Shown here: positions 15,575 through 29,095 of the stretch, one piece after another
How positions within the stretch are numbered: position 1 is the first letter of the stretch
Layout of the letters: the number at the start of each line of letters is the position of its first letter
Translations under genes and position numbers: made by a program
From: a virus
Taxonomy: Duplodnaviria > Caudoviricetes
Virus record (IMG/VR): IMGVR_UViG_3300013308_000019
Location: 31,274 to 95,273 of that record
Length of the DNA: 64,000 nt
Direction: 5' to 3' (one strand)
The notes under the pieces: generated by a model
Told to the model about the DNA's origin: nothing
Database searches by the model: none
The model's input: only the letters and a program-made list of their open reading frames with translations

Positions 15575-15583
15575 GATGTAGGC

Positions 15584-15790: not shown

Positions 15791-15801
15791 AAGGGAACAT
15801 C

Positions 15802-16119: not shown

Positions 16120-16203
16120 TTACAAAAGACGCTTAGCATCCATCTTGCATCTGATGCGGATGGGTGCTAAGCTGTAGGTATCGGCCAAACGAAAGGGAAG
16201 ACA

Positions 16204-16407: not shown

Positions 16408-16492
16408 TTACAAAACACGCTTAGCGTCCGGACTTGCGAGTTCGGACTCTATGCGGTAAGCTTGAGTTATCAGCCAATCGAAAGGGAAGACC

Positions 16493-16708
16493 ATGAAGCA
16501 ATTTCGGCTTTTGACAGTGACCAGCGTAGACCGCAAGAAATTGATCTCCGTTCCCATCGGACAGATCACACTCATCGGGTACGGGCAATACACCGGTACG
16601 GGTCGGTTGATCCTTACCAGCGGTGGGCACGTGGACACCGTCGAACCGTACGAGGATTTGGTCTCCCTGTACGAGGAACTGGCGGAGTACGAGGGACCGA
16701 ACCGGTAG
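16493..16708 (+). CDS. FlbD/SwrD-like small protein
   Basis: ISVPIGQITLI..LILTSGGHVDTVEPYEDL pattern; own promoter. Confidence 0.6.
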   Translation: MKQFRLLTVTSVDRKKLISVPIGQITLIGYGQYTGTGRLILTSGGHVDTVEPYEDLVSLYEELAEYEGPNR

Positions 16709-16769
16709 TTACAAAACACGCATAGCGGCCCTAGTTGACACTGGGGCCGCAGGTGTGTATACTAGAAGT

Positions 16770-16851
16770 AGATGGTAAGCCATTGATATCGGCCCTGTAG
16801 CGGGGTCGGGGGAAAGAGCCATCCTAAACGCGTTTCGGCCTTTTATTTTTT
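16770..16851 (+). ncRNA. candidate small RNA, family 2
   Basis: TTGACA-17-TATACT promoter, no convincing ORF, hairpins, ends GGCCTTTTATTTTTT; similar to 19084-19155. Confidence 0.55.
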
Positions 16852-16897
16852 GGGTCCTCTGGTTTCCCTGCCCCGCGTCTTTGCGGCTCCGCTTCAT
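16845..16897 (-). ncRNA. candidate small RNA, family 1 (ATGAAGC..GGGAAACCAGAGGACCC)
   Basis: leftward TTGCAT promoter; core identical to copies at 25426 and 28307. Confidence 0.55.
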
Positions 16898-17052
16898 AGC
16901 TTCATTCTTTCACAATTTCGATGCGGATGCAAGTCTACAAGAAACGCGTTACAAGAAACGCATTGCGGTTAGAGTTTGCATCCGGTGGCCGTATGCCGTA
17001 GAGTAGAGCTATCGGGAACGACCGGTTCCCCCGAAGCCTTGGAGGTCTCATC

Positions 17053-17676
17053 ATGGGCGCACCCCGTATCGGTAACGTGCTGGACGTTCCGACTAAGCGT
17101 GTATATGCCGCTAACCCTAACTCGGCCCGTATCGTGGACGTGTGGCGGCAGGCTACCGTTTCCGAATTGGTAGAGGGTATGGAGTGGTACCGTGACGCTC
17201 ACGCGCTCGCCGTGGAACTCTCCCCTACTGATCCGGCGCAGGCCGCTGGCGTTATCGCCGCGCTGTCTCCCCTTATGTCATGGGGTCAGAATGTGGTGCT
17301 GGCAGTCCGCGCATATGCGGACGGTAAAGCATCCGGTGCACTCTTTAGCAACGTTGCTAAAGCCAACCGTATCCTCGCCGGTGAGCGTCCGGAGGATGTA
17401 CTGGGCGGCGATAAAGTACGGGCGTTCTACGGTGCTATTGCTGATCCGGCATCGGATGCGGTTGTCGTTGACCGGCACGCGTTCGACATTGCCGTTGGCC
17501 GCGTGACTAACAACGAGTCGCGGCAGGCACTGGGCCGTAAGGGTGTGTACGATTCGTTCGCACGGGCCTACGTACGGGCCGCTAAGGCCATTTCAGCAGA
17601 GACTGGCATGGATGTATCGGCCAGTCAGGTACAGGCCGTTACGTGGACGGTATGGCGTAGGCTCAAGGGTCTGTAG
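17053..17676 (+). CDS. phage protein with HhH-GPD/glycosylase-like motifs
   Basis: WY..AALSP..W..N..KVRAF..VVDRH..QAVTW. Confidence 0.55.
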   Translation: MGAPRIGNVLDVPTKRVYAANPNSARIVDVWRQATVSELVEGMEWYRDAHALAVELSPTDPAQAAGVIAALSPLMSWGQNVVLAVRAYADGKASGALFSNVAKANRILAGERPEDVLGGDKVRAFYGAIADPASDAVVVDRHAFDIAVGRVTNNESRQALGRKGVYDSFARAYVRAAKAISAETGMDVSASQVQAVTWTVWRRLKGL

Positions 17677-17771
17677 TTACAAGAAACGCATAGGCGGCAG
17701 GACTAGACACCCTGCCGCTTATGCCATAGACTTTATTCATCGGAACAATCCGAACCACTTAGGAGGCCAAC

Positions 17772-18131
17772 ATGGCAAGCATCGCAGAAACTCTTCTTAC
17801 CCGCACGGCACGCGACGGCGGCGTTACTGTCTCACTCGTTAGCGGCGACGTGGCCGCGCACACGTCGGGGTTCTACGTCGGCGGACGCGTCAAGGAAACC
17901 ATCGTTTCCGACCCGTCAAGCATCGGGGACTACCTGACTGCCGTCTCCACCATCACCCGCCGTGCCGGTGGCGTAGGCTACGTGGGAGCGTGGAAGAACC
18001 ACGAGACCGGTCTGGTCCACGTGGATGCATCGGATCACGTGGAGGACTTCGGGACCGCCGTACGGATCGCGCAGGAACGCGGCGAACTGGCGATTTGGGA
18101 GATCGCGGGCGGAACTGAATTCCGCCTCTAG
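17772..18131 (+). CDS. hypothetical protein, paralog of 27162-27596
   Basis: GFYVGG..VGAW..D.S..ERGELAIW; AGGAGG RBS. Confidence 0.75.
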   Translation: MASIAETLLTRTARDGGVTVSLVSGDVAAHTSGFYVGGRVKETIVSDPSSIGDYLTAVSTITRRAGGVGYVGAWKNHETGLVHVDASDHVEDFGTAVRIAQERGELAIWEIAGGTEFRL

Positions 18132-18220
18132 TTACAAAAACCGCATAGCGTCTAGGACTTGCGTCTTAGGCGCTATGCGGGTAAGCTAGTCATATCAGCC
18201 AAACCAAACAGGAGGACAAA

Positions 18221-18514
18221 ATGCCGCTCATGTCAGTCAAGCTCAAGAATCGCATTCTCAAGGCCGACCCCACGTTGGAGGTCCACCTGCGGAACATCCG
18301 GGTCAATGCGGACCCTCGCGGATGCTCTGGATTCATCGTCAACCCTGCCAATGGCAAGGTCGTGTACGTAGACACTGAGGAAAGTGTCTACGGGCCGCTA
18401 CGGGGCAAGATTCTGTACCGGACGGCGGAACACACCAAGGACTTTACCGGTGGCGTCAACCGGTGGGCAACGGATGAAACGCTCGTTGCGGACGTGCTGC
18501 AACTGCTCAAGTAG
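18221..18514 (+). CDS. conserved phage hypothetical protein (GCSGF..LYRTA..DFTGG.N)
   Basis: own promoter/RBS; ends at box. Confidence 0.8.
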   Translation: MPLMSVKLKNRILKADPTLEVHLRNIRVNADPRGCSGFIVNPANGKVVYVDTEESVYGPLRGKILYRTAEHTKDFTGGVNRWATDETLVADVLQLLK

Positions 18515-18599
18515 TTACAAAAAACGCTTACGGGATGGGACTTGCACAATGCGGTCCCATCCCCTAGAATTGAAGTATCAGCCAAACAGGAGGAACAAA

Positions 18600-18728
18600 A
18601 TGGATCGCGAAACTCGGGCCGAAATCATCTGCAACCTTGCAGGCAAGGACCCCAACAACGAGGCCGACTGGGCGGAGGCTTTGAAAGAAGCTGACCAGCA
18701 GATCGCAGACGGGTTTGAATACCAGTAG
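18600..18728 (+). CDS. 42-aa hypothetical protein (cassette)
   Basis: AGGAGG RBS; ends at box. Confidence 0.7.
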   Translation: MDRETRAEIICNLAGKDPNNEADWAEALKEADQQIADGFEYQ

Positions 18729-18819
18729 TTACAAAAAACGCTTAGCGGATGGGGTTGCATCTAGCGGCCCCATCCGGTAGACTCTTACTATCAGCCAAAC
18801 AACGGGAGAGGAACCCAAA

Positions 18820-19029
18820 ATGGACTGGATCACTGTAACACCGGCTTACGGACGCGACTACCGCAACAAGACGGAGGCGCTCGCAGACTGGGATGCGGAC
18901 AAGGACTTTCGGGAGACGGCGTCCAGCAAGTACATCAACAAGTCGCAGGCCGAACGGATGGGACTCAAGGTCATCATCCGGTACGGGAAGGGCATGAAGA
19001 ATCTGGACACCACGGCGAAACGCCGGTAG
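18820..19029 (+). CDS. conserved phage small protein (PAYGRDY motif)
   Basis: TPAYGRDY..W..KDF; own promoter. Confidence 0.8.
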   Translation: MDWITVTPAYGRDYRNKTEALADWDADKDFRETASSKYINKSQAERMGLKVIIRYGKGMKNLDTTAKRR

Positions 19030-19036
19030 AACTTAC

Positions 19037-19072
19037 AAGAAACGCTTAGCCGAAAGGCTAGGCGTTTTTTGT
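19037..19072 (+). terminator. intrinsic terminator built from box plus inverted box
   Basis: AAACGCTTAGCC-GAAA-GGCTAGGCGTTTTTT. Confidence 0.8.
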
Positions 19073-19083
19073 TGTTGCGGCCT

Positions 19084-19155
19084 AAAAAATAAGGCCAGAC
19101 TCGGCCTTCCCCGCCACCCGTCTCAGGGCGGCTATCATGTTCGCCTTGCGGCTAT
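19084..19155 (-). ncRNA. candidate small RNA, family 2
   Basis: leftward TTGCAT(19190-19185)-17-TAAGCT; three hairpins; AAGGCC..GGCCTT-ATTTTTT terminator. Confidence 0.6.
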
Positions 19156-19272
19156 AAAATAAGCTTACCACCTTGCGGATGCAGATGCAAGTCTACAAGA
19201 AACGCATTGGGACTTGCGGATGCGCTCGCATGCGTGTACGTTTAGGGTAACGGATCAACGAAAGGGAAGATC

Positions 19273-19554
19273 ATGTCGGACTACACGAAGTTCCAGATGT
19301 ACAGCTACGGGACGCACAACCTTGTGGAGACGTGGCAGACCTACGGACACAACGCGGCCATTCTGGCGGACGTGGAGTATCGGGACGGTATGTGCACCGT
19401 GACTGTGTACGACCCCACAACATCCCGTTGCCGTACGTACGACAACCGGCCTACCGTGGCCGCTCTCGGTATCGTAGAGCGTCACCTAGAGCGCATGGGT
19501 TACAAAAACTGCGTAGAGGTTCGGGACTTGACGGCTGAGACCTCGGAGGACTAA
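19273..19554 (+). CDS. hypothetical protein
   Basis: AAAGGG RBS. Confidence 0.7.
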   Translation: MSDYTKFQMYSYGTHNLVETWQTYGHNAAILADVEYRDGMCTVTVYDPTTSRCRTYDNRPTVAALGIVERHLERMGYKNCVEVRDLTAETSED

Positions 19555-19587
19555 GCTTAGGTATCGGAACAACCTAGGAGGCGGACC

Positions 19588-19902
19588 ATGGCACGCAAAC
19601 CACGCGCTAGTGAAGTAGCTACAAGAAACGCATTCTTGGACTACTTGGAGTCACTGGAGACTCGGGCGACGGAGGACATTTGCGGAGTCTGGTATAACCG
19701 TCTGGGAGCCTCTAAGCATGCGGCAGGGGAATTGTGCCAGTGGGATATGTTCAGCCGCCCATGGCACCTTGTAGCGCGTTACGCGTCTGAAGAGCTTACG
19801 GAGTGGTTCGCTCGCAATGGCCGGATGACGTTTACCGAGTGGCGCGAATCGGAACGCGAATACCTGCGGGAACAGTTTGACATGTACGCACAGAGCGCGT
19901 AA
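19588..19902 (+). CDS. hypothetical protein
   Basis: AGGAGG RBS; internal box at 19619. Confidence 0.7.
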   Translation: MARKPRASEVATRNAFLDYLESLETRATEDICGVWYNRLGASKHAAGELCQWDMFSRPWHLVARYASEELTEWFARNGRMTFTEWRESEREYLREQFDMYAQSA

Positions 19903-19943
19903 GCTCTAGGTATCAGCCAAACCAACCAGTCAAGGAGACTAAA

Positions 19944-20342
19944 ATGGCAAAGACTTTCAAGCTCACCAACCAGCGGGCAAACGAACTGCTGGCAGACATC
20001 CGGCAGGTATCCGCGCAGGAAGGTGACTGGCGGGCAACGCTGGACAATCTCGAAGAGACGTTCGAAGCGTTCGCGGAGATGACGGCGGAACCGGAGCGTG
20101 TGATCTTCCGGAAGTTCACCCATGACGGCGCAATCATCGCCCTGCTCCCTGACCAGTACAACGAGCGGAACGGCAACATCGGGAGCTACATGGAGTTGGG
20201 ACAGCACGCGGAGACGGCTCCCGATTTCGGAGACACCAAACCGGCAGACGCACCGGAGTACCGGAACCTCTACAACGAGTTGGTACGGCAGGGTTACCAC
20301 AACCTGAAGGTGGTCAAGCGTTTCGGGAAGCTTGGCCGGTAG
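19944..20342 (+). CDS. conserved phage hypothetical protein (VIFRK..SY..GQH..EY..L..EL...GY)
   Basis: AAGGAG RBS; ends at box. Confidence 0.8.
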   Translation: MAKTFKLTNQRANELLADIRQVSAQEGDWRATLDNLEETFEAFAEMTAEPERVIFRKFTHDGAIIALLPDQYNERNGNIGSYMELGQHAETAPDFGDTKPADAPEYRNLYNELVRQGYHNLKVVKRFGKLGR

Positions 20343-20434
20343 TTACAAGAAACGCATACGGGACCGGAGTTGCTTAGGTGGCTCCGGTCCTGTAGTCTTT
20401 AGGTATCAGTTCATCAACGGCACAGGAGGCCACC

Positions 20435-20905
20435 GTGGTATACATGCTCACCATCAAAGACTTGGAAACCCGTCCGGAGGGTACGTACTACACAGGACCG
20501 CTGGAAGAGGCTAAGGCCTTTATCGCGGACTGGATCAACTCCACTGAGGCCCGATACCTCGACACCACCGGTAAAGTCCGGTACGCGGTCTACCTGACCT
20601 TGGAAGTCGGAGACGGCAAACCTGCCAGCATGGACAACTGCAACGACATTGGGGTCGGAGACACCAGCGAAGAGGCTTGGCGGTACGCTCTGGGCGCAGA
20701 GTTTGGACCTGCCGACGACGAGTTTAGCGCGTTCCCGCTGACACACGACAAGCGGGAGGCTGTAGAGGCTATGGTGGCGCACCACTTCCCGGAGCGTCTG
20801 GACGCGTTCTACTCGCCCACAACAGGCCTTGCGGCAGTCGAGGACACGGATGGGAACATGTGGCGCGTGTGGCCGGATGGGGACATTGAGGTCTACCGCC
20901 GATAG
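20435..20905 (+). CDS. two-domain hypothetical protein
   Basis: AGGAGG RBS; FPERLD C-domain shared with 7270-7659. Confidence 0.75.
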   Translation: MVYMLTIKDLETRPEGTYYTGPLEEAKAFIADWINSTEARYLDTTGKVRYAVYLTLEVGDGKPASMDNCNDIGVGDTSEEAWRYALGAEFGPADDEFSAFPLTHDKREAVEAMVAHHFPERLDAFYSPTTGLAAVEDTDGNMWRVWPDGDIEVYRR

Positions 20906-20999
20906 GTTACAAGAAACGCGTAGCGGGTAGGATTTGCGTCTTACCCGCTATGCGTGTATTCTTTAGGTACAAGGTAAGAACAACGGCTAGGAGGCCACC

Positions 21000-21245
21000 A
21001 TGAACAAGGCAAAAGCGGAGAAGGTACTGGCAGAGGTTGAAGAGCAGTTCAAGCTCTACATCGAAGCAGGGTACCCGAAGCCGAACCTGCGGGATGCGGA
21101 CCATGAGCAACTGCCCAAGGGTTCGTGGTCCATCGACTGGGAAGATGGTCCGGACGAATGGTGCTACGCAATGCCAGCGTCGAAGATTCCCGGCGTTTTC
21201 GTGGAGCCGATCATGTCGTTTGTTCTCGGAGTCTACGACGACTGA
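21000..21245 (+). CDS. hypothetical protein (cassette)
   Basis: own promoter/RBS; ends at box. Confidence 0.75.
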   Translation: MNKAKAEKVLAEVEEQFKLYIEAGYPKPNLRDADHEQLPKGSWSIDWEDGPDEWCYAMPASKIPGVFVEPIMSFVLGVYDD

Positions 21246-21349
21246 GTTACAAGAAACGCTTAGCGGGTACGGGTTGGACAACAGCCCGTACCTGCTGTAG
21301 TCTTTACTTATCGGTTCAACCGGAACCGCCGAAAGCCTAGGAGGCTATC

Positions 21350-21562
21350 ATGCTTGAAGCTCGCACCCTCTCCCGTTCCCCGCTCAACTTCCTCCCCAAC
21401 GACTCGGTAAGCATCGAGGGCATGTTGGTACGTGTGGACCGCGTAGAGGCCCTTACGGCGAATCTGGTACGCGTTGAGGGGAACGTCATGAGCTTCCCCG
21501 TCTCAATGGTACTGGGCGCTACTCAGATCATGAAGGTAACCCGCATGGTCCACATGCTGTAG
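21350..21562 (+). CDS. hypothetical protein (cassette)
   Basis: own promoter/RBS; ends at box. Confidence 0.7.
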   Translation: MLEARTLSRSPLNFLPNDSVSIEGMLVRVDRVEALTANLVRVEGNVMSFPVSMVLGATQIMKVTRMVHML

Positions 21563-21658
21563 GTTACAAGAAACGCGTAGGCCGGTGGACTTGTGTCCAT
21601 CGGCCATAGCGGGTAGGATCATGGTATAAGGTAGAACCAACCTACAAAAGGAGGAATC

Positions 21659-21829
21659 GTGGACAAGTTCAAGCTCGGTTACATCGTTGGCAAGCGTTAC
21701 CGCGTGTGGACGGGAGACGTGGACTTGGTCCTCGGCTACCGTGATGATGGATGGGTCATCGTCCAAGACGAGAAGACTGGCGTAATTCGTACGCACATCA
21801 CCACGTGTTCAAGCACTCCGCTCGACTAG
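21659..21829 (+). CDS. small hypothetical protein (cassette)
   Basis: AGGAGG + GTG; ends at box; not in ORF track. Confidence 0.65.
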   Translation: MDKFKLGYIVGKRYRVWTGDVDLVLGYRDDGWVIVQDEKTGVIRTHITTCSSTPLD

Positions 21830-21920
21830 CTACAAGAAACGCTTAGCCGGTAGGACTTGCGCCTACCGGCTGAGGCGTGTAGTCTTGAGGTATCAAGTCA
21901 ACCACTCCAAAGGAGACACA

Positions 21921-22091
21921 GTGAACTTCGAAGTCGGAACCAAAGTCGAAATCCTCGAACGCGGCGCATGGGTAGGCCCGTTCACCGTTACGGCAGACGC
22001 GGGACGCACGCCGGATCACGTAGTGCTTTACGGTCCCTCTGGCCGGTTCGAAGTCTACAACGACGCACCGTTCAACATCCGTAAAGCTTAG
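21921..22091 (+). CDS. SH3-like small protein (cassette)
   Basis: AAGGAG + GTG; FEVGTKV. Confidence 0.7.
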   Translation: MNFEVGTKVEILERGAWVGPFTVTADAGRTPDHVVLYGPSGRFEVYNDAPFNIRKA

Positions 22092-22192
22092 TTACAAAAA
22101 CCGCTTAGGGAGTCGGACTTGCATCCGGCTCCCATAGCGGGTAAGCTTTAGGTAATGGAGCAACCGGCTCCCCAAAGTCCTAGGAGGACACA

Positions 22193-22471
22193 ATGACTGG
22201 TGAAGAGTACTTGGAAGAATCGGGCGACTTTGAGGACGCCGTGCAGGATTTGCCGCTGGCCGGTGGCATAGTCGGACGCCAGATTGTGGCGTACTTCGAA
22301 AACCTCGACGGACGCGTGGCAGTACATGCCGAGTCCATCGACCACGTTGGAGAGGGCCAGCACGACTACCGGATCACCTTTGAGGGTGGACAGGTTCAGG
22401 CCTACCGCGTGACGTTCTCCAGCACCAACATCTTCATTTCCACCATCGTGGACGCAACGCCGCTCAACTAG
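22193..22471 (+). CDS. hypothetical protein (cassette)
   Basis: own promoter/RBS; ends at box. Confidence 0.75.
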   Translation: MTGEEYLEESGDFEDAVQDLPLAGGIVGRQIVAYFENLDGRVAVHAESIDHVGEGQHDYRITFEGGQVQAYRVTFSSTNIFISTIVDATPLN

Positions 22472-22567
22472 TTACAAAAACCGCTTAGCGGTTAGGGTTG
22501 ACACTCTAGCCGCTAAGCCGGTAGACTCACTACATCGGAACAATCCGGAAACCAAAAGGAGAAAGTC

Positions 22568-22855
22568 ATGAAGTCGGTAATCACCAAGCTGGAAGTCTCG
22601 GAACGTCTGCTGGGCGTGGAGAAGTACGAACTGGAGATCAAGGGCAAGAAGGCTCACGGGACCATCGTGGAACTCCACACGGACATTGACAGCGGCCAGC
22701 GCCACGTGTTCGTCCTGACGCCGGTAGACGGCGGTCTGTCGCCCTCCACGGCGGATGCAGTAGCTCGACGCCTCATCGACGGCGCTCGCAAGTTCTCGGG
22801 CAACCACGTCGGCCCGAACAGCGTGGTACGCGTCGGACGCTACGCGGCCAGCTAG
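22568..22855 (+). CDS. hypothetical protein (cassette)
   Basis: own promoter (TTGACA in perfect hairpin loop)/RBS. Confidence 0.75.
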   Translation: MKSVITKLEVSERLLGVEKYELEIKGKKAHGTIVELHTDIDSGQRHVFVLTPVDGGLSPSTADAVARRLIDGARKFSGNHVGPNSVVRVGRYAAS

Positions 22856-22952
22856 TTACAAAACACGCATAGAGCCTCGGACTTGTGTCTGAGGCTCTTA
22901 GCGTGTAAGCTTTAAGTATCGGAACAATCCGACAGAGACAAAGGGGTAGGAC

Positions 22953-23210
22953 ATGAACAACACTCTCATCCACAACATCGTGGATATGACGCGATTCGCG
23001 GTTAGCTCTGTGAATTTCTCGCAGGTCTACGCGTTCGACAACGGTACCAAGATGGCCGTGTCGCGTAACGCCATGACAGGCGGGCACAAGGCCGGTTACA
23101 TGGCCGTCCTGCCTTACGACAAGGCCGGTAATCAGGTAGATGATCGGGCGGAGGCGTGGCTCTCAGCGGAGGACGTGGCTATCAAGATGGAAGTCCTCGC
23201 CAGCGAGTAG
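22953..23210 (+). CDS. hypothetical protein (cassette)
   Basis: own promoter/RBS; ends at box. Confidence 0.75.
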   Translation: MNNTLIHNIVDMTRFAVSSVNFSQVYAFDNGTKMAVSRNAMTGGHKAGYMAVLPYDKAGNQVDDRAEAWLSAEDVAIKMEVLASE

Positions 23211-23295
23211 TTACAAGAAACGCGTAGGGCCTAAGTTGACTTCGGTTAGCTTAGGCCTTATGCTTGTAGTACACACCAACCGAAAGAAGGACACC

Positions 23296-23502
23296 ATGGC
23301 GCGCAACTCCACTCCCGCCACTCGTGCCGAGGCTCGCGACAAGGCCGAGGTAATCGGCGCGGCTGAGCGCGTGATCTACGCGGAAATCAACGACTTTGTG
23401 TTGCGGGTAGGCAAGCACAAGGCTACGCCGTTCCTCGCGGTACTGGGCGGGTTCGCCTACATCATCTTTGGTCACGAGCTTGTGAACTCCATAAACCTGT
23501 GA
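23296..23502 (+). CDS. small protein with C-terminal TM
   Basis: AAGGA RBS; hydrophobic C-terminus. Confidence 0.65.
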   Translation: MARNSTPATRAEARDKAEVIGAAERVIYAEINDFVLRVGKHKATPFLAVLGGFAYIIFGHELVNSINL

Positions 23503-23650
23503 TACAATGAACTCACAGACATAAAATGAAGCCTCTGGGGATGACCACCAAATCTCCCCGGAGGCTTCGCCAATTGTGGGAGAGGTTGGCTTACAAAAAA
23601 CGCGTAGCGGATAGGTTTGCATTCCGGCGCAAAGGTGGTAAGCTTAGAAC

Positions 23651-23747
23651 ATGGAAAGGGAGGTTAGGAGCCTCCACCCGCCAGACTAAGAATCTGGGGG
23701 TCCGGGAAGTTCCCACCCACTGGGAACCGTCAGCCCCACGCACGGGG
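23651..23747 (+). ncRNA. candidate four-hairpin small RNA ending in a type I-E repeat-like hairpin
   Basis: occupies a whole box-to-box unit with its own promoter; only a 12-codon ORF; stems GGAGG/CCTCC, CCAGA/TCTGG, GTTCCCA/TGGGAAC, CCCC/GGGG. Confidence 0.55.
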
Positions 23748-23846
23748 TTACAAAACCCGCTTAGCGGATGGAGTAGACAGGCCGGTTGAAAGCTGGTAGT
23801 CTTATTCCATAAGCAGTTCACAACTCCACAGAGAAAAGAGCAGACC

Positions 23847-24053
23847 ATGAAGGTTTTCTTCGAAGCACTGGTCGATGGACAGTACGTCAACCAGAAGCGT
23901 CTGGCGGATATCCCGGATGAGAAAGCTTACGCTCGGGCGGCTAAGGCCTACCCGAATGATCCGGACTACGTGGAGCAGATGCTCGACGGACGCGGCTACA
24001 TCTACATCAACGGCCACAACTGCCGGTTCACCTACCAACAGGACAGCCTCTAG
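23847..24053 (+). CDS. hypothetical protein (cassette)
   Basis: own promoter; ends at box. Confidence 0.7.
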   Translation: MKVFFEALVDGQYVNQKRLADIPDEKAYARAAKAYPNDPDYVEQMLDGRGYIYINGHNCRFTYQQDSL

Positions 24054-24156
24054 TTACAAGACACGCATAGGGCCTCTACGGAGGCCCTATTTGCGTTTGG
24101 GCGGAAAGGTGGTATCGTTGAGGTATCGGCAAGGGTTGCCGGTAGGAAAGGGAGTC

Positions 24157-24477
24157 ATGGAACTCAACGTCAAGTACAGCACCGCGAATCTGGAAGCAAC
24201 CAAGGGTAGCGCGGACGCCTCACCCGGTGACCGCAACGCGGCACCCTACCTGCTGAAGCTGGACACCGTGGAGCGGCGTCTGCGGGCTGTAGGCGAGGCC
24301 CACACGCTCATGAACCTGCTGGGCTTCCGGTACTCTGAGGCTGTCTACAACGCCGTATCGGACCTGAGTAAGAACATTGCCGCTGGGCAGGAGGATAAGG
24401 CCCTCTACGGCGAGGCTATCGCTAAGCGGTACCGCGACGAAGAGAACGCACGCCGGAAGCTGGAACGCGGGTACTGA
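24157..24477 (+). CDS. hypothetical protein
   Basis: GGGAG RBS; last rightward cassette. Confidence 0.7.
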   Translation: MELNVKYSTANLEATKGSADASPGDRNAAPYLLKLDTVERRLRAVGEAHTLMNLLGFRYSEAVYNAVSDLSKNIAAGQEDKALYGEAIAKRYRDEENARRKLERGY

Positions 24478-24489
24478 TACAAAAAACTC

Positions 24490-24528
24490 TTAGGCTCTCA
24501 TCCTCCGGGATGGGAGCCTATTGTTTTG
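24490..24528 (+). terminator. intrinsic terminator closing the rightward array
   Basis: TAGGCTCTCATC..GATGGGAGCCTA-TTGTTTT. Confidence 0.75.
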
Positions 24529-24747
24529 TGTCTGGGCGGGGCTGTGTGGGCCTCTACGGGGCTGTGAGGGATTGGGTGGCACTCTCACCCATGGCGGCGA
24601 TTCTAGGGCCTTAGGCGGGCACGTAGGGCCTGCGGTAGGCCTGCGTAGCTGTGAGGCTCTGGGCGGCTGTCTGCGGGCCTAACTGGGCGCAGACGCACAA
24701 AGACCCCCAACCTTTCGGTTGAGGGCCTCTGTGGGGCTGTGGAGGGC

Positions 24748-25014
24748 CTAGGCTTCGATGTCCTCGGGGCTGATGTCCATCACGTAGGCTTTGATGTTGA
24801 CCTCGTCATCTGACTGGCCTGAGCGGTCCCAAGGGTTGATGCAGGGAACGTCTGCGGCTTCGATTTCCACCTGAAGGGAGCCGTCCGGGTTGGTGGCCGC
24901 GATATCGGTTACGGTCATCTCTTCGCCAGCTTCGAGGACTGCCGTCCATCCGCTGGAAAGGTTGATTTCAATGCGCCGGTTGAGCTTGATGGTCTGGCCG
25001 ATTTCGATGAACAT
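24748..25014 (-). CDS. hypothetical protein (last leftward cassette)
   Basis: AAAGGG RBS; start revised to 25014. Confidence 0.7.
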   Translation of the reverse strand: MFIEIGQTIKLNRRIEINLSSGWTAVLEAGEEMTVTDIAATNPDGSLQVEIEAADVPCINPWDRSGQSDDEVNIKAYVMDISPEDIEA

Positions 25015-25115
25015 GGTTCCCTTTCGTGGCCGGTGTTTCCGGCTCATGTAATGAGCTTACCGGACAAACAGAAAACGCGCAACCCCGAAGGGTTACGCGT
25101 TTTTTGTAAGTGGGG

Positions 25116-25316
25116 CTAGTCCTCATCCCAGACTTCGCCCGCGTAGTCGTCCTGTTCGGACGAGTTGCAGACTGGGCACTGATCCGTGCAGGAGGCCCAA
25201 GAGTAGATGTAGTACCACGAGCCGTCGAACTTGGAGCGGGTGGGGGAGACGATGCGCTGGTGGCCAGCGGCGTCGGTGTAGACCTTGTCGCCGGGGTATT
25301 CTGCGAAGGTTGACAT
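25116..25316 (-). CDS. small Cys-containing protein
   Basis: AAGGAG RBS; C..CPVC. Confidence 0.7.
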   Translation of the reverse strand: MSTFAEYPGDKVYTDAAGHQRIVSPTRSKFDGSWYYIYSWASCTDQCPVCNSSEQDDYAGEVWDED

Positions 25317-25407
25317 TGTTTTCTCCTTGTTTGGTTTGACCTTGTACCTACAGCTTAGCATGGTTTCGCGGGGCTTGTCTACTCGGGAGGCTGTGCGTTT
25401 TTTGTAA

Positions 25408-25459
25408 GGGTCCTAATTATTTTAGGGGTCCTCTGGTTTCCCAGCCATGTCCGCTTCAT
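25408..25459 (-). ncRNA. candidate small RNA, family 1
   Basis: TTGACA(25494-25489)-17-TAGACT, then ATGAAGC..GGGAAACCAGAGGACCC. Confidence 0.6.
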
Positions 25460-25555
25460 GGTTTGAGTCTACGGGGTTTGAGGGTGAGTGTCAAGCCTGC
25501 GGCAGACACAAGAGAGAGGGGAGCCTCTCGGCTCCCCTCTAAGCGTTTCTTGTAG

Positions 25556-25729
25556 TTACCAGCGGTCCATCATGAAGGTGTGTCCGCCGAATCCTTGGAT
25601 GACTCCGCAGATGACCATGACGATGGTTGCCACCACCAGCCCGCCCATGAAGGCCCATCCGATGATGCAAAAGAGAATCCAAGATGCGATATCGAGGAAA
25701 CCTTTGATTCCGGTGTATGAAGACTTCAT
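25556..25729 (-). CDS. small membrane protein
   Basis: AGGAG RBS; hydrophobic; ends at box; not in ORF track. Confidence 0.65.
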   Translation of the reverse strand: MKSSYTGIKGFLDIASWILFCIIGWAFMGGLVVATIVMVICGVIQGFGGHTFMMDRW

Positions 25730-25830
25730 GGCCTGCTCCTAAGTTTGTATCGGCTTGTTCCGATGTATAGAGCTTAGCATAGGCTCCGAGTAGTTGTCTA
25801 CCCGAAGCCTATGCGTTTTTTGTAGCTGTG

Positions 25831-26073
25831 CTAGCGGTCAAGCGGCACGCGCTCCAGCGAGCCAGTGCCGAAGTAGTCCACGTTGAGCAGGTACTCAGAG
25901 CCGTTCCAGCGAGCGCGTGCGCCGCTCCTGTAGCCATTGTCGAGCATGTGATCTGCGATAGCCTCGCTAGAGGCGTTCTCGATGGCGTAGGCCTTGCCAC
26001 GGACCACGTAGCGGCTTCCAGCGGCTCCCCGTACCGTGCGCTGAGTCTGGTTCTTCTTGATGGTCTTTCCCAT
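25831..26073 (-). CDS. hypothetical protein
   Basis: AAGGAG RBS; start revised. Confidence 0.7.
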   Translation of the reverse strand: MGKTIKKNQTQRTVRGAAGSRYVVRGKAYAIENASSEAIADHMLDNGYRSGARARWNGSEYLLNVDYFGTGSLERVPLDR

Positions 26074-26162
26074 TGTCTTACTCCTTGTGTGCGTTTTTTG
26101 TATTGGAATTGCCATTAGTGGCATGCCCTACTAGGTAGCGTACCACCTAGTAGAGCAAACTG

Positions 26163-26429
26163 CTAATCGCGGGCTTCGTCGTCCGAGACTTGGAACATCC
26201 ACGAATCGGTGTAGATGTTCCGGCGAACTGTGATCTTGCCCTGAGCTACCAGCGATTCGAACGCCTCGCGGTAGTTCTTGAGGTTCGCGGGAGTCTCGCG
26301 GATGTTGTGCCACGCGAGCGTGCTTTCGACGGTACGCTCCACCATGATGTCCCGGTGAGTGGTGTGGGAGTCGTAGAATCCGTCGTTCCACTCGTTGATG
26401 TAGGTGAGGATGTTGTCTTCGCGGCTCAT
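26163..26429 (-). CDS. hypothetical protein (cassette)
   Basis: own promoter, leader and RBS. Confidence 0.75.
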   Translation of the reverse strand: MSREDNILTYINEWNDGFYDSHTTHRDIMVERTVESTLAWHNIRETPANLKNYREAFESLVAQGKITVRRNIYTDSWMFQVSDDEARD

Positions 26430-26525
26430 GTCTTGCTCCTTGGCTTGTCTCGGCTTGTTCCGATATGGATAGCTTACGCTAGTCGGGAGAGTTATGCAAC
26501 CCTCCCGACTAAGCGTTTTTTGTAG

Positions 26526-26717
26526 CTAGTCTTCGAGGTCTTCGATCTCTTCCACCTCTGCGGCTTGGAAACCATGCTCGTCTTCGAGTTCTTCGAGAGT
26601 GGTGTACCAGAACCCGCCGACCCCATCCGGAGTGATGAAGTACATGTCATCCTTGCGGACGTAGTACGCGGTATCGACGGTGAGTTCGGAACGGGGAGTG
26701 AGGGTTGCCTGTGCCAT
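26526..26717 (-). CDS. acidic small protein (cassette)
   Basis: own promoter/RBS; ends at box. Confidence 0.75.
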   Translation of the reverse strand: MAQATLTPRSELTVDTAYYVRKDDMYFITPDGVGGFWYTTLEELEDEHGFQAAEVEEIEDLED

Positions 26718-26812
26718 TTTCTTTTCCTTTGTTTGGAGCGGCTTTGCTTATGTGTCTAGCTTAGCCTAGGTGGGAGAGTATTGCAACCCTCCCACCTAAG
26801 CGTGTTTTGTAA

Positions 26813-27067
26813 CTACGCTTTACCGTAGTGCCCACCGTCTGGCAGGTCACCACAGCAGGGGAAGAAGTGGATAGGCCACGCCTCATCCTCGCCACCCTCT
26901 GCGATGAAATCGGCGTTGTAGTCGAGCCACAGATCACGCTTGCTGTCGAAGTCGTCATCGAACCAGTCGTGACCCTTCTTGGCTTTGGGAACGTCTGCAC
27001 AGTCTGCGCGGTGAACGCTCACGTCGTAGTCGTTGTTCCCATTGCCGTTGATGGTTACCAGTTTCAT
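26813..27067 (-). CDS. small His/Cys protein (cassette)
   Basis: VHRADCAD..FFPCC; own promoter. Confidence 0.75.
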   Translation of the reverse strand: MKLVTINGNGNNDYDVSVHRADCADVPKAKKGHDWFDDDFDSKRDLWLDYNADFIAEGGEDEAWPIHFFPCCGDLPDGGHYGKA

Positions 27068-27161
27068 GATGACTCCTTAGGTCTATCGGCTTGTTCCGAT
27101 ATGAATAGCTTACACGCAAAAGGCCCGAGAACCAAATCTCGGGCCTATGCGTTTTTTGTAG

Positions 27162-27596
27162 CTAGTTGACGTAGATGCTCACCTTGTTGGCAACATCCCA
27201 GACGGCCAGTTCCTCGCGCTCCTTAGCTACGAGCATTGCCGTCTCGTAGTCCTCGTACCACTCGGAGGCTTCAGCGTAGACAACACCGGACTCTACCCAC
27301 GTGCCCATCAGCCCGAGGCCTTCAGTGGTCGCGTAAGCCATTCCCAGTGCGTACTGGTAGTCTCGGGTATCCGAGGCCTTCAGGTCGAACATGTGGGGCT
27401 TGTGGAGGCCTGCCACGTAGTAGCCGGTGGTGTGCGAGGCCATGGCCATGGTGGGGCTGGAAAGGTCGAGAGTGCATCCACCGTTGGCGGACGTCTCACG
27501 TGAGAGGGTGACGCCGCGAATCTGACCATAGGTCCGGAGCTTCGGCGTGACGCCGGAGTTTTCGTTGCGCATGGTCTCTACTGTCTGAGCGGACAT
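27162..27596 (-). CDS. hypothetical protein, paralog of 17772-18131
   Basis: AGGAGG RBS; GYYVAG..MGTW..EREELAVWD. Confidence 0.75.
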   Translation of the reverse strand: MSAQTVETMRNENSGVTPKLRTYGQIRGVTLSRETSANGGCTLDLSSPTMAMASHTTGYYVAGLHKPHMFDLKASDTRDYQYALGMAYATTEGLGLMGTWVESGVVYAEASEWYEDYETAMLVAKEREELAVWDVANKVSIYVN

Positions 27597-27729
27597 TGGT
27601 TCCTCCTGAGTGGATCGGATGGTTTGATATGAAGAGCATACCACTACTTTTGCGGATGATGCAAACTGCGCGGATGACGTGCGTTTTTTGTAAGTTGCGC
27701 GTGAGCGCGGATGCGTGTAAGCTGAGAGT

Positions 27730-27785
27730 ATGAAGCAACCGATTGAAGCTGGGTCACCGGAGGACCCACAAAATAAGTGGGTCGG
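27730..27785 (+). ncRNA. candidate small RNA, family 1 (divergent copy)
   Basis: TTGCGC-17-TAAGCT, then ATGAAGC..GCTGGGTCACCGGAGGACCC. Confidence 0.5.
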
Positions 27786-27874
27786 AAAGTAGGCATCACT
27801 CCATTCTCTCATAGTTTTTGGGTGGTTGTCAAGTGGGCTGAGGGCAAAAGAAAAGGCCCTTTCGGGCCTTCCCT

Positions 27875-28186
27875 TTAGAGTACTTCGTACTTGCCATTCG
27901 GCTGGCGGTACTTGATGTACGTGCAACCGGCGTCGTACTGCGCCCATTCCAGCGGCTGGAATGCATCCTCGCTGTCCGCGTCACCGTAGAAGTAGCCGGT
28001 GAAGTAGCAGTTGTCGTCGTCGTCGTAGAGCTTGAAGTGGGTACCCTTACCGGCCTTGCCGTCGCGGATGCTGGCACGCTCTGCGTTGCTGGTGCCGTAC
28101 ACGCGGGGAGTTTCCAGCTTTTCCAGCTTTTCACCGAAGTTGGGGTTGCTGTCTTCGATTGCCGAGTGAGTGATCGTGAAACCCAT
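27875..28186 (-). CDS. conserved phage hypothetical protein (FKLYDDD..G..PL..AGCT.I.Y)
   Basis: AGGAG RBS; terminator hairpin downstream. Confidence 0.8.
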   Translation of the reverse strand: MGFTITHSAIEDSNPNFGEKLEKLETPRVYGTSNAERASIRDGKAGKGTHFKLYDDDDNCYFTGYFYGDADSEDAFQPLEWAQYDAGCTYIKYRQPNGKYEVL

Positions 28187-28289
28187 TGTGACTCCTAAGT
28201 CCGTTTCTCAAGCTCCCTGCTTGATGACTCAAGCCTATCATCTATTCGGCAGATTGCAAACCCCAATTTCGCAATGCGTTTTTTGTAAC

Positions 28290-28340
28290 CGGCCTGAAAG
28301 TAAAAGGGGTCCTCTGGTTTCCCTGCCTCCGGAGCTTCAT
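28290..28340 (-). ncRNA. candidate small RNA, family 1
   Basis: TTGCTT-17-TACCAT, then ATGAAGC..GGGAAACCAGAGGACCC. Confidence 0.6.
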
Positions 28341-28420
28341 AGTTCCATGGTACCGGCTTTGCCGGTGGGAAGCAAGTCCCTGAGGACAAAAGAATAGGAC
28401 CCCTTTCGGGGTCCTATTCT

Positions 28421-28609
28421 CTAGTCTTCGTCGTCTCGCGGATCGTAGATTTCCCGCTGACGTTCGCGGATTTCGTAGAGTTCCTCGTCCCACTTGCCAA
28501 CCAGTACGCGGTACCGTGCGGCCTGATCGGAGGTCATCCGCTCGCCGTTATCTACCATGTCGTCAAACAGGGACAGTTCGCGGGCCTCTTCGGTGGTGAG
28601 CTTTGCCAT
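28421..28609 (-). CDS. small hypothetical protein
   Basis: own promoter/leader/RBS; terminator 28391-28420. Confidence 0.75.
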   Translation of the reverse strand: MAKLTTEEARELSLFDDMVDNGERMTSDQAARYRVLVGKWDEELYEIRERQREIYDPRDDED

Positions 28610-28701
28610 GATGTTCTCCTAAGTCTCTCGGCTTGTTCCGATGTACTAAGACTACAGGCATAGGGGACAGGATGCAAGTCCTATCCCCTACGCGTTTTTT
28701 G

Positions 28702-29025: not shown

Positions 29026-29095
29026 GTGTCTCCTTTGGGTTGCGGGTATCCAACATATAAGACTCTAGGGCATGCGGTGCACGATTGCAAGCTGA

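Follow-up and report, generated by a model that had tools for sequence, protein, structure and literature searches.

A previously undescribed family of short early transcription units with a nucleotide-conserved 5' module in a large soil actinophage

Four short units and their promoters

The analysed window is a stretch of 64,000 nucleotides from the contig of a large soil actinophage, in which four short, early units were found. A pattern search for the ATGAAGC element recovered all four copies of the original prediction, at 16897(-), 25459(-), 28340(-) and 27730(+) (c1, c2, c3 and c4, respectively), with 0 copies expected from shuffled sequences. No further copies were detected in the entire 95,273-bp contig. 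The units had been proposed to be promoter-driven, which was supported. Each carries a TTG -35 box, a 17-bp spacer and a TAnnnT-type -10 box (AAGAAT in c1), and ATGAAGC follows at 6 nt. The identical geometry was determined for 41 of 41 family members in related phages. The features of the four loci are the following.

16904..16932, minus: c1 promoter, TTGCAT-17-AAGAAT-6-ATG (-35 box 16932-16927, -10 box 16909-16904), read from the sequence, with the geometry of the 41 members
16840..16897, minus: c1 element, long type E, with orthologues in the related contigs G001, G002 and L133
16897-16891, minus: heptamer AUGAAGC of the c1 element
16886-16883 and 16876-16873, minus: hairpin 1 of the c1 element, CCGC pairing with GCGG
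16868-16852, minus: core of the c1 element, GGGAAACCAGAGGACCC, followed by an A-run
16712..16839, minus: probable c1 RNA body, conserved with the same three contigs (C-rich block, CCUUCCCCCGACCCCGCUNCAGGGCCGAU)
16735..16763, plus: convergent cassette promoter facing c1, TTGACA-17-TATACT, predicted start about 127 nt from the c1 start
25466..25494, minus: c2 promoter, TTGACA-17-TAGACT-6-ATG, directly behind a strong terminator (25540-25515)
25408..25459, minus: c2 element, type B, variable segment GGACAUGGCU, core at 25442-25426, then hairpin 2 (CCUAA/UUAGG)
28347..28375, minus: c3 promoter, TTGCTT-17-TACCAT-6-ATG, behind a terminator at about 28395-28425
28289..28340, minus: c3 element, type A, variable segment UCCGGAGGCA, core at 28323-28307
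27695..27723, plus: c4 promoter, TTGCGC-17-TAAGCT-6-ATG, back-to-back with a minus-strand cassette motif (27680-27693)
27730..27783, plus: c4 element, type C, variable segment AACCGAUUGAAGCU, core at 27751-27767
27763-27783, plus: hairpin 2 of c4, GGACCCAC / GUGGGUCC-type stem with an A-rich 7-nt loop
27803..27832, minus: convergent promoter facing c4, TTGACA-18-(TG)GAGAAT, predicted start about 66 nt from the c4 start
27844..27872, both strands: bidirectional intrinsic terminator, stem GGCCC/GGGCC with T-runs on each strand, common to the c4 RNA and the 103-aa gene
27875..28186, minus: 103-aa gene, phrog_12268

The surrounding region holds about 52 terminator-promoter cassettes. An AT-skew switch and 52 co-oriented cassette motifs bore out the proposal that c1 and c4 run antisense to the local array. 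Both are probably stand-alone cis-antisense RNAs opposite convergent promoters, with predicted starts and ends. The c1 RNA body is antisense to the transcript of the promoter at 16735-16763(+); its 3' end was inferred, and none was predicted by the terminator scan. The c4 RNA is antisense to the leader of its convergent promoter because the predicted start of the latter lies so close to that of c4. The lengths of 50-80 nt proposed originally were not upheld: the estimates resulted to be about 140 nt for c4 and 185 nt for c1, and no terminator was found between c2 or c3 and the next promoter cassette and gene. These two copies are additional 5' leaders, of predicted transcription, ahead of ordinary promoter cassettes and genes. 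The c2 element abuts a cassette motif (25407-25394) followed by a 66-aa gene (25315-25116), and downstream of the c3 element lie a cassette motif (28288-28275) and the 103-aa gene (28186-27875). The 103-aa gene has a sense element (A or E) upstream of it in 8 related contigs, several of which also carry an antisense element (C or D) downstream of it.

Conservation and structure of the module

In relatives, 41 copies were detected across 13 related phage or metagenome contigs, and the cultured Arthrobacter phages Talia1610 and Racecar contain one copy apiece; the overall tally of the module in related phages is about 45. The ATGAAGC heptamer at the predicted start of transcription and the GCWGGGNNAC core are both invariant and occur together, only 1-2 sites with promoter and ATGAAGC being devoid of the core. 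The module had no match among described RNA families. The family of short early phage transcription units that includes c1-c4 had not been described before and is new but narrow. The early, host-takeover part of the genome is where the elements are found; in Talia1610 and Racecar this part is a terminal repeat of roughly 20 kb.

The variable segment occurs as discrete types, A to F. Type A is 97-100% identical from +1 to +34 in 7 other phages, with flanks at 46-69% (about 50%), and type C is 100% identical from +1 to +24 in 8/8 copies (7 phages). The conserved 3' block of type C is explained by the convergent promoter at 27803..27832(-). In types A, B and D, polymorphism is confined to the central position +12. 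Type swapping was observed at orthologous loci with conserved flanks: Talia1610 carries A and Racecar B, and at the c2 locus G000 carries B and G001 D.

The 'variable GC-closed loop' described earlier is a true hairpin in c1 but not in c2, c3 or c4, and the reported A/T-rich tract is actually a conserved AAAA(U/C) run, present in 37/41 members. The hairpin-1 stems of the c1 orthologues differ yet stay complementary, and four different complementary stems were determined for the long type. Loop indels in this type result in ATG-to-core distances of 29, 30 and 31 nt; the one-nucleotide indels change the reading frame, and the hairpin is retained through compensatory changes. In hairpin 2, CCC is paired downstream in 24/41 copies compared with 10 expected. 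Core position 14 forms a C-G pair in 14 copies and a G-C pair in 11, which is a compensatory change. For this hairpin a Wilcoxon test against shuffles gave p = 3e-4. Hairpin 2 is missing from about a third of the copies, and no covariation was found within the core itself.

Possible functions of the module

Among the 75 early promoters of the phage, 18 have an ATG at the same position, and in 13 of the 18 this ATG begins an ORF of 68-206 aa. Leaderless translation in mycobacteria requires a 5' AUG, which is also sufficient, and a downstream nucleotide preference was not found (PMC4633059). Because at least 13 genuine leaderless genes share the promoter-to-ATG geometry of the elements and a 5' AUG suffices in actinobacteria, the element RNAs are predicted to be translated. 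Leaderless mRNAs are translated in the host clade, and ribosomes therefore probably use the 5' AUG, although it is not the peptide that is conserved. Translation of the 5' AUG was under-weighted in the original prediction. The purine tract pairs with the anti-SD sequence at -5 kcal/mol or better in 35/41 copies, which is the range of the real SD sites of the phage. The tract is lost in the other six copies, and part of it falls inside hairpin 2.

Our tentative preference is that the 5' module is conserved at the RNA level as a docking handle or stabiliser at the transcript 5' end. A housekeeping-type promoter would direct host RNA polymerase to initiate at the A of AUGAAGC. In order from this end, the transcript would consist of the invariant heptamer AUGAAGC, a swappable segment (a loop of 6-14 nt or a real hairpin) flanked by invariant GC...GC that possibly pairs, a single-stranded WGGGNNAC box with a usually Shine-Dalgarno-like purine tract, and a hairpin based on GGACCC whose loop is A/U-rich. 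Since the host is an actinobacterium, 70S ribosomes should load on the 5'-terminal AUG. The first-choice partner of such a handle would be the ribosome, through the AUG and the SD-like tract. Docking would then protect the RNA or mark it, much as SD-like 5' stabilisers do, and it would not matter which peptide is made. A dedicated RNA-binding factor reading the type-specific segment would be a close second as the partner. Ribosome docking leaves the invariant AAGC, the invariant GCWGGGNNAC and the discrete segment types without explanation.

Under a separate reading, which we consider unlikely, the elements are a handle and specificity loop for a dedicated phage or host RNA-binding protein, either as a decoy or antidote against a host RNA-guided or RNA-binding defence or as a phage regulator, and types A to F are discrete specificities traded between phages. 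The constant ends, the few sharply conserved segment types with +12 as the only variable site in A, B and D, the type exchange at orthologous loci and the location in the host-takeover region are consistent with it. However, no partner gene candidate was found, the units are single, unlike the ToxI tandem repeats, and a search of 185,579 species genomes gave nothing similar except Lon-gene matches and matches at chance level. Across 401 genomes of the order to which Arthrobacter and Microbacterium belong, the matches did not exceed those of a reversed-pattern control. The likeness to a crRNA handle noted earlier was not supported, as the copies are dispersed single units with own promoters and the segments are a few fixed cross-phage types, not spacers. 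The suggested CsrA-like character was not supported either: each element has a single purine tract, partly within a stem, and no CsrA was found in five phage genomes, with the built-in actinobacterial control genome, Corynebacterium glutamicum, likewise giving no match.

It is distinctly unlikely that the elements are trans- or cis-acting base-pairing small RNAs, with c1 and c4 as classical countertranscripts on convergent leaders and with the 5' heptamer, the variable segment and the WGGGNNAC box as seeds for host or phage mRNAs. A convergent promoter lies 66-127 nt downstream in 16/41 copies; some of these cases are element-element pairs 103-109 nt apart, which would form perfect duplexes. 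Several stand-alone copies have a terminator of their own, and invariance without covariation is seed-like. However, a convergent partner is lacking for types A and D and for most F copies. In three phage genomes no complementary site of at least 12 nt recurred syntenically, the opposite strands of the elements excepted, and complementarity to 16S/23S rRNA of one Micrococcales genome was not above shuffled controls.

A slimmer chance still is given to conservation at the DNA level, with +1 to +35 serving as an operator or roadblock for a phage or host DNA-binding regulator of a subset of early promoters. The position and orientation relative to the promoter are fixed in all copies, the core is invariant without covariation, and a regulon-like minority of the about 75 early promoters carries it. 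The promoter-to-core spacings of 16, 17, 18, 20, 21, 26, 29, 30 and 31 bp, however, place the core on all helix faces, and the compensatory changes that keep the segment hairpins and the covariation of hairpin 2 are unexpected for duplex-DNA recognition. A single protein touching the core and RNA polymerase on DNA was also considered; it is opposed by the non-helical promoter-to-core increments.

Peptide coding by the elements is unlikely, and leaderless genes for functional micropeptides, e.g. MKLRRQGNQRTP..., are highly improbable. The ATG is at the canonical leaderless position, as in the real genes of the same phage, and a 5' AUG is enough for actinobacterial translation (PMC4633059). One frame, giving G-[NH]-x-R-T-P-K, is common to 24/41 copies, and the few within-type substitutions (+12 and core position 3) are synonymous in it. 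Against this, the ATG-to-core distance varies from 16 to 31 nt and the core is read in three frames, which hold 24, 11 and 6 copies. The ORFs from the ATG range from 8 to more than 43 codons with unrelated tails, many of which run through the next promoter cassette. One copy, G002_22933, has a stop codon within the core, and 1-nt loop indels shift the frame in orthologues. The 34 nt are invariant with hardly any synonymous change, whereas the neighbouring genes diverge to 52-83%. The different frame of the c4 core and the unrelated C-termini were confirmed, and RNA over peptide, as originally favoured, is upheld by the nucleotide-level conservation, the core stop, the frame-shifting indels and the compensatory hairpins.

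The lowest probability is assigned to a put- or nut-like role in antitermination or anti-pausing, in which the promoter-proximal RNA would modify the transcribing polymerase and let it read through the many cassette terminators: the module stands at the transcript start in a region with more than 50 hairpin cassettes, c2 and c3, behind strong terminators, must cross a cassette before the gene, and the GGG-GAAA-CC mini-hairpin looks like a GNRA-type boxB loop, but this loop is variable (UCAC, ACAC and UAAC also occur), a two-stem put-like fold and boxA are absent, a terminator within 60-140 nt downstream of several copies apparently bounds a short RNA, and every gene has its own promoter.

Comparison with known systems

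The polypurine stabiliser of Bacillus phage SP82 early RNA and the cryIIIA STAB-SD are SD-like 5' mRNA stabilisers known from Gram-positive bacteria and their phages. As in these, an early phage RNA has, close to its 5' end, a purine-rich SD-like tract with no start codon at initiation distance; by analogy, ribosomes would bind there and could protect the RNA against 5'-dependent decay. In contrast to them, the tract is just one component of a longer invariant module, together with AUGAAGC, GCWGGGNNAC, the swappable segment and the hairpin, and is gone from six copies; an effect on stability is suggested here by analogy.

Countertranscripts and cis-antisense RNAs of plasmids and phages are represented by ColE1 RNA I, R1 CopA and P22 sar. 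Similarly, c1, c4 and the element-element pairs are short, their promoters each face another promoter about 66-127 nt away, and they are fully complementary to the 5' part of the opposing transcript. However, a convergent partner is absent in more than half of the family, and the shared module has the same sequence in every copy instead of being target-specific.

Phage RNA decoys are known as the pseudo-ToxI of phage phiTE and the solitary repeats of RNA anti-CRISPRs. The elements are likewise short, promoter-driven, non-coding and early, with constant ends and a specificity part variable between phages. They differ in having no tandem repeats, no likeness to host repeats in the 185,579 species and 401 order genomes, and no CRISPR- or toxin-linked context around them.

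As in the mycobacterial leaderless short ORFs (Shell et al. 2015, PMC4633059), an ATG is located at the predicted +1 of a housekeeping-type actinobacterial promoter, and the element RNA is therefore expected to be translated. Unlike those ORFs, the conserved part occurs in three frames with stops and frameshifts, selection acting on the nucleotides instead of the peptide.

PeSLs are composite promoter-terminator cassettes of T4-type phages (PMC2839356, PMC4122927). The about 52 cassettes around the elements are PeSL-like, comprising a conserved post-stop motif, a hairpin whose loop contains the -35 box and then a -10 box, and the elements fill the 'gene slots' between them and are shuffled as cassette cargo. 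In contrast to PeSLs, it is the transcribed cargo and not the cassette that was found here, in an actinophage, and the cassette motif varies among relatives whereas the element stays constant.

Element copies and the early region that carries them

Exact pattern searches of the window returned all four originally predicted copies, and no match was obtained in any shuffled sequence. No further element copies were present in the full 95,273-bp contig, whose bases 31,274-95,273 make up the window. The predicted promoter geometry was confirmed: every ATG lies exactly 6 nt past a TAnnnT-type hexamer, separated by 17 bp from a TTG hexamer. The c2 promoter, TTGACA-17-TAGACT, was also called independently by a consensus promoter scanner. 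At c1, a second ATGAAGC is found 8 nt upstream of the start; it is a local duplication of the heptamer and overlaps the -10-to-start spacer.

Features of the window (nt; strand; description)
16897; minus; element copy c1, ATGAAGC ... AGAGGACCC
16899-16905; minus; second ATGAAGC at c1 (ATGAAGCTATGAAGC)
16735-16763; plus; near-consensus cassette promoter facing c1
25459; minus; element copy c2, ATGAAGC ... AGAGGACCC
25407-25394; minus; cassette motif downstream of c2
25315-25116; minus; 66-aa gene downstream of c2
27730; plus; element copy c4, ATGAAGC ... GGAGGACCC
27832-27803; minus; promoter TTGACA-18-GAGAAT facing c4
27844-27872; bidirectional terminator
28340; minus; element copy c3, ATGAAGC ... 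AGAGGACCC
28288-28275; minus; cassette motif downstream of c3
28186-27875; minus; 103-aa gene downstream of c3
4082-29833; 52 sites of the 14-nt cassette motif, for example 7660, 9915, 14606, 17677 (plus) and 25394, 27680, 28275, 29820 (minus)
29707-29833; minus; four tandem cassette motifs
4144, 5379, 5712, 7721, 7979, 8371, 8586, 9708, 9974, 12239, 15584 (plus) and 25047 (minus); predicted leaderless gene starts (at least 13 in total), ATG 6 nt after the -10
28702-29025 and 29096-29545; minus; two early genes with signal-peptide-like products
50236-52658; plus; NAD+ salvage module
56200-63282; plus; 2,360-aa protein

The contig is a fragment of a large phage, about 55% complete. Its portal protein is 54-58% identical to the portals of Racecar, Mimi, Talia1610 and Atuin, which are 194-kb phages of Arthrobacter globiformis, and the next-best matches belong to Microbacterium, Gordonia and Mycobacterium phages. 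As the portal matches fall among actinobacterial phages, the host is an actinobacterium, probably of the Micrococcaceae family. Immediately behind the portal gene, a 2,360-aa protein is encoded whose central part is a helicase domain (phrog_1967) and whose C-terminus matches a head-maturation protease family; aligned over 35-39% of its length, it shares 45-50% identity with the giant 'DNA helicase' encoded by the Arthrobacter phages Mimi, Racecar, Talia1610 and Atuin. The NAD+ salvage module consists of adjacent ribose-phosphate pyrophosphokinase and nicotinamide phosphoribosyltransferase (NAMPT) genes.

The 4-30 kb part of the window is an early-type array of small genes made of repeated cassettes, the promoter-terminator units between these genes. 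The cassette motif, TTACAAAAAACGCA, occurs in 52 copies with at most 2 mismatches vs 0.3 expected, and sits after almost every small early gene. Its orientation is strictly that of the genes (plus strand at 4,082-24,067, minus strand at 25,096-29,833). The usual order is a TAG stop, the motif, a hairpin with a TTGACA-like -35 in its loop, often a T-run, and a TAAGCT-like -10; on the opposite strand the motif is a U-run after the hairpin. Other cassette motifs were found in the relatives: TTACAAAAATTGA(A)TAG in Talia1610, Racecar, G003 (a related genome) and L133, and TTACAAAAGTT in L131 (both related contigs). The four tandem motifs of the window are 28-47 bp apart in a gene-free stretch upstream of one promoter heading the minus-strand array, which suggests that the motif may also be a protein-binding site.

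An ATG is placed at the seventh base after the -10 in 18 of the 75 promoter-like sites of the early region. As ORFs of 68-206 aa open at 13 of these 18, the phage is predicted to use leaderless mRNAs extensively, their share being unusually high for a phage early region. Such use is in line with work on mycobacteria, where an ATG or GTG at the 5' terminus is both required and enough for translation and no other sequence preference exists (PMC4633059). The products of the two early genes at 28702-29025 and 29096-29545 have N-terminal signal-peptide-like segments, and one of them carries an HExxH motif and weakly matches a metallopeptidase family, below threshold; among the early genes of a phage, a secreted protease would not be expected.

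Family, anatomy and genomic contexts

Relatives were found by scanning IMG/VR and JGI metagenomes with the core of the element, GCWGGGNNAC with the adjoining purine tract. The near-complete genomes G001 (171,752 bp) and G003 (168,556 bp, with direct terminal repeats) carry the element, as do G004 (158,613 bp), several fragments and five soil or rhizosphere contigs, one of which has at least 8 copies in 13.8 kb. Loose-pattern IMG/VR matches were mostly chance and were discarded. The full relatives (~830 kb) were searched by profile and by a rule-based scan. These sequences contain 141 ATGAAGC heptamers, 41 of which both stand 6 nt after a -10-like hexamer and have the core downstream. A promoter with ATGAAGC and no core was met at only one or two sites in the ~830 kb, and a promoter-bearing core without ATGAAGC at none.

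BLAST against the cultured-phage collection detected the element in Talia1610 (15,996 and 190,468), and a pattern search detected it in Racecar (16,574 and 190,283; together loci L227-L231); the close relative Atuin lacks it, as do the Microbacterium phages. Each carrier genome has one locus, present as two identical 3,024-bp copies because it lies inside a terminal repeat of ~20 kb. In both phages the early small-gene arrays would thus lie within direct terminal repeats of about 19.9-20.5 kb. The element was not found in bacterial genomes: 185,579 species genomes gave only chance matches or a Lon protease motif, DEAEIRGHRRTY, which accidentally fits the search pattern in many bacteria and archaea (loci L144-L185), and both kinds of match were discarded. 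In 401 genomes of the order containing Microbacterium and Arthrobacter, the core pattern with 1 mismatch did not exceed the reversed-pattern control, and the idea of a host mimic was dropped. The family is confined to a small clade of Arthrobacter-type phages, with some 16 genomes or contigs identified; it is a real and sharply delimited RNA-level element that had not been described before.

The anatomy was determined from the 41 copies. AUGAAGC (+1 to +7), the GC three bases before the core, GGG, and AC at core positions 5-6 are invariant. The purine tract at core positions 8-13 is strongly conserved, usually as AGAGGA or GGAGGA and also as GGGAGA, AGGAGA or GAGGGGA, and so is CCC at positions 14-16. 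Positions 19-22 are AAAA in 37 copies and UUUU in the other four. The variable segment may be closed by a putative pairing between G6-C7 of the heptamer and the invariant GC that precedes the core; neither side of this pairing ever varies.

Types of the variable segment (type; segment; copies; window copy)
A; UCCGGAGGCA; 9 and Talia1610; c3
B; GGAC(A/G)UGGCU; 5 and Racecar; c2
C; AACCGAUUGAAGCU; 8; c4
D; CCAC(C/A)AGCA; 4
D'; CCACGGGAGCA; 2
E; long insert forming a hairpin; 10; c1
F; odd copies, including one D-like (CGGGCAAGCA); 3

Conservation of the element is far above that of the neighbouring coding sequence. Among seven phages with type A, positions +1 to +34 are 97-100% identical, vs 46-69% for the promoters (-60 to -1), 49-67% for the next 60 nt and 52-83% for the downstream gene region. 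Seven phages with type C do not differ at any position from +1 to +24 (100% identity). The types are swapped between orthologous loci with conserved flanks, type A of Talia1610 corresponding to type B of Racecar; similarly, an orthologous locus has type D in G001 and type B (c2) in the window phage.

Copies c2 and c3 each follow a strong terminator, have a promoter without the usual hairpin, and are separated by no terminator from a standard cassette and gene. Running unterminated into these, they would form extra 5' leaders transcribed from an upstream promoter. Copies c1 and c4 point against the local array, as had been predicted. The promoter facing c4 lies about 66 nt downstream, and the 3' block of type C is conserved because it is the complement of this convergent promoter. 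The c4 transcript then meets the bidirectional terminator, which gives a predicted RNA of ~140 nt. The promoter facing c1 is ~127 nt away. We infer that the c1 RNA could end at the hairpin of the facing cassette, where the motif is a U-run on the c1 strand and the terminator scan made no call. A convergent promoter with a predicted overlapping complementary transcript, which defines cis-antisense RNAs, is found at c1 and c4 and not at c2 and c3.

In the family, convergent promoters lie 66-127 nt away in 16 of the 41 copies. Pairs of elements facing each other at a distance of 103-109 nt occur in L133, L138, L140 and G004, and hairpin 2, the downstream GGACCC-based stem, is common to both members of a pair. 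Intrinsic terminators occur within 60-140 nt downstream of several copies of types A, C, D and F. In eight contigs a sense element of type A or E stands before the 103-aa gene (phrog_12268, no known function), and an antisense element of type C or D often lies behind it; a DUF6011 gene and a 91-aa gene are bracketed similarly. No informative family was obtained for the 103-aa, 66-aa, 144-aa, DUF6011 and DUF7178 proteins.

RNA or peptide, and possible partners

The ATG-to-core distance takes nine values (16, 17, 18, 20, 21, 26, 29, 30 and 31 nt), and the core nucleotides are therefore read in all three frames, by 24, 11 and 6 copies. The predicted peptides have between 8 and more than 43 residues and end in unrelated tails, many of which run through the next cassette; in one copy a stop codon falls within the core. 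Changes of 1 nt in the loop length of type E shift the frame while the stem is kept. The preference of the original prediction for an RNA over a peptide is strengthened by these frames, stop, indels and lengths. The ATG is at the predicted +1 in 41 of 41 copies, the same geometry as in the at least 13 predicted leaderless genes of the phage; the conserved frame and amino-acid sequence of a leaderless small protein are not found. Rare within-type substitutions at +12 (types A, B and D) and at core position 3 are synonymous in the majority frame, of which the +12 synonymy is weak evidence, because all three +12 changes hit the same nucleotide. In our reading, selection acts on the nucleic acid and not on the peptide. 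Translation from the 5' AUG is likely, yet it is not the conserved feature, and functional micropeptides are very improbable. As the family shows, an RNA that begins with AUG in a host capable of leaderless translation is not necessarily the product of a peptide gene.

Hairpin 1, the insert of type E, is built from four different complementary stems: CCGC/GCGG, GCCG/CGGC, GUCCC/GGGAC and UAUCCC/GGGAUA. In hairpin 2, GGACCC is paired to a G-rich arm over an A/U-rich loop, and its CCC is fully paired in 24 of the 41 copies, vs 10 expected from shuffles. Core position 14 forms a C-G pair in 14 copies and a G-C pair in 11, several pair types are also seen at positions 13, 17 and 18, and in type-C orthologues GACCC/GGGUC is replaced by UGCCC/GGGCA. 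The constrained fold energies were better than those of shuffled controls (Wilcoxon p = 3e-4). MAFFT with RNAalifold on 23 copies yielded only the invariant GGG/CCC mini-stem, so the core itself is without covariation support. For the long type, MAFFT did not keep the sequences in the register needed for formal pair counts, and pairs were counted by per-sequence folding instead.

The module occupies the extreme 5' end of otherwise different RNAs: mRNA leaders, antisense RNAs and terminated short RNAs. Its presence in such dissimilar RNAs points to a function general to 5' ends, or to a handle by which a partner binds. Tentatively, we prefer an RNA-level 5' docking module with the ribosome as the partner, which would bind through the canonical leaderless AUG and the SD-like purine tract. 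The duplex of the tract with the anti-SD reaches -5 kcal/mol or better in 35 of the 41 copies, within the range of the phage's real SD sites, and the tract drifts in sequence while staying SD-like. The triplet 8 nt past it is AUA, ACU, ACA, GUU or GCU, with no conserved start codon. However, the ribosome as the whole story leaves AAGC, the GCWGGGNNAC box and the typed segments unexplained; moreover, the SD-like tract is lost in six copies and lies partly within hairpin 2.

All these features would be accounted for by a dedicated RNA-binding partner that reads the typed loop, the element being its handle or decoy; no candidate protein was found, and this reading is unlikely. It is rather unlikely, too, that the elements are interchangeable 'typed' handles, in which a constant scaffold would present the type A-F specificity loop to a protein and the types would be traded among Arthrobacter-type phages via recombination at the constant ends, for example to serve as early-expressed RNA decoys or antidotes that counter host RNA-binding defences, or as identity tags when phages compete with one another. 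Base-pairing sRNAs are quite unlikely, since no seed-type target was found in phages or rRNA: complementary sites in three phage genomes were only the elements' own opposite strands, and shuffled elements gave duplex energies at least as good with the 16S and 23S rRNA of a Micrococcales genome. A duplex-DNA operator is improbable, with the non-helical spread of promoter-to-core spacings and the hairpin covariation speaking against it. The least probable is antitermination: lambda nut and HK022 put have boxA with boxB or the two-stem put fold with covariation, which the element lacks, and its GAAA loop is replaced by UCAC, ACAC or UAAC in other copies.

Four further candidates were set aside, an R-loop origin primer among them. 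The phage has NAMPT, but the -3 to +4 context seems unlike the published NAD-capping consensus; no conserved slippery heptamer lies in frame for a programmed frameshift; and the ends are set by promoters and not by the repeats of an inverted-repeat mobile element.

To our knowledge, almost nothing is known about non-coding RNAs and early 'host-takeover' regulation in actinobacteriophages. The present family is unusually well defined by its invariant 5' end at the predicted start, discrete swappable types and two hairpins with compensatory changes. It is bench-testable because the cultured, freely available SEA-PHAGES isolates Talia1610 and Racecar carry it and their relative Atuin does not. 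A non-peptide 5'-AUG RNA matters for the annotation of hundreds of 'leaderless sORFs' in actinobacteria and their phages. A ribosome-docking stabiliser or typed protein handle, if true, would be a new regulatory device and a potential RNA-stabilisation tool in actinobacteria; interchangeable typed handles, if true, would make the family a new class of modular regulatory RNA in phages.

Comparison with known systems

No Rfam 15 family reached the gathering threshold in the whole window, and when 16.5-28.6 kb, or c4 and c3 by themselves, were scanned permissively, all matches were of terminator type or due to chance and fell far short of it. A likeness to the preQ1-I aptamer and to the hammerhead 'GAAAC' was dropped, there being no PreQ1 match despite the superficial resemblance. 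The proposed similarity of the 5' end to a crRNA handle did not hold: no arrays are present, the copies are dispersed under their own promoters, and the 'spacers' are 6-7 fixed types with 100% conservation across phages. The element thus differs from the repeat-spacer or unique-spacer organisation of CRISPR-derived RNAs, including solitary-repeat anti-CRISPRs.

The suggested CsrA-like character of the purine tract was abandoned as well. CsrA (PF02599) is absent from five phage genomes, and the only control genomes with a match were those of E. coli, B. subtilis and T. maritima; Corynebacterium glutamicum had none. RNAs titrating CsrA/RsmA need several GGA motifs in hairpin loops, whereas the element has one purine tract, with its GGA mostly inside the hairpin-2 stem. 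Pseudo-ToxI, the antitoxin RNA mimics of type III toxin-antitoxin systems, consist of tandem repeats like those of a host antitoxin array beside a toxin gene, whereas the units of the element are single, and no host counterpart was found in the 401 genomes of the order or in the species-genome collection.

SD-like 5' stabilisers have been described in Gram-positive bacteria and in phages that infect them, and the 5'-dependent RNases J and E are present in actinobacteria. The element shares with the STAB-SD type an SD-like tract near the 5' end without a start codon at initiation distance. Cassettes like those around the element, in which terminator and promoter are combined, are named PeSLs in T4-type phages (PMC2839356, PMC4122927). 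The 52 cassettes have the same conserved early promoter fused to a stem-loop and flanking small genes; the element differs in being transcribed cargo and not a cassette. As defined, none of the following four classes includes the family, and they may be regarded as its nearest functional analogies: SD-like 5' stabilisers, leaderless sORFs, countertranscripts and PeSL cargo.
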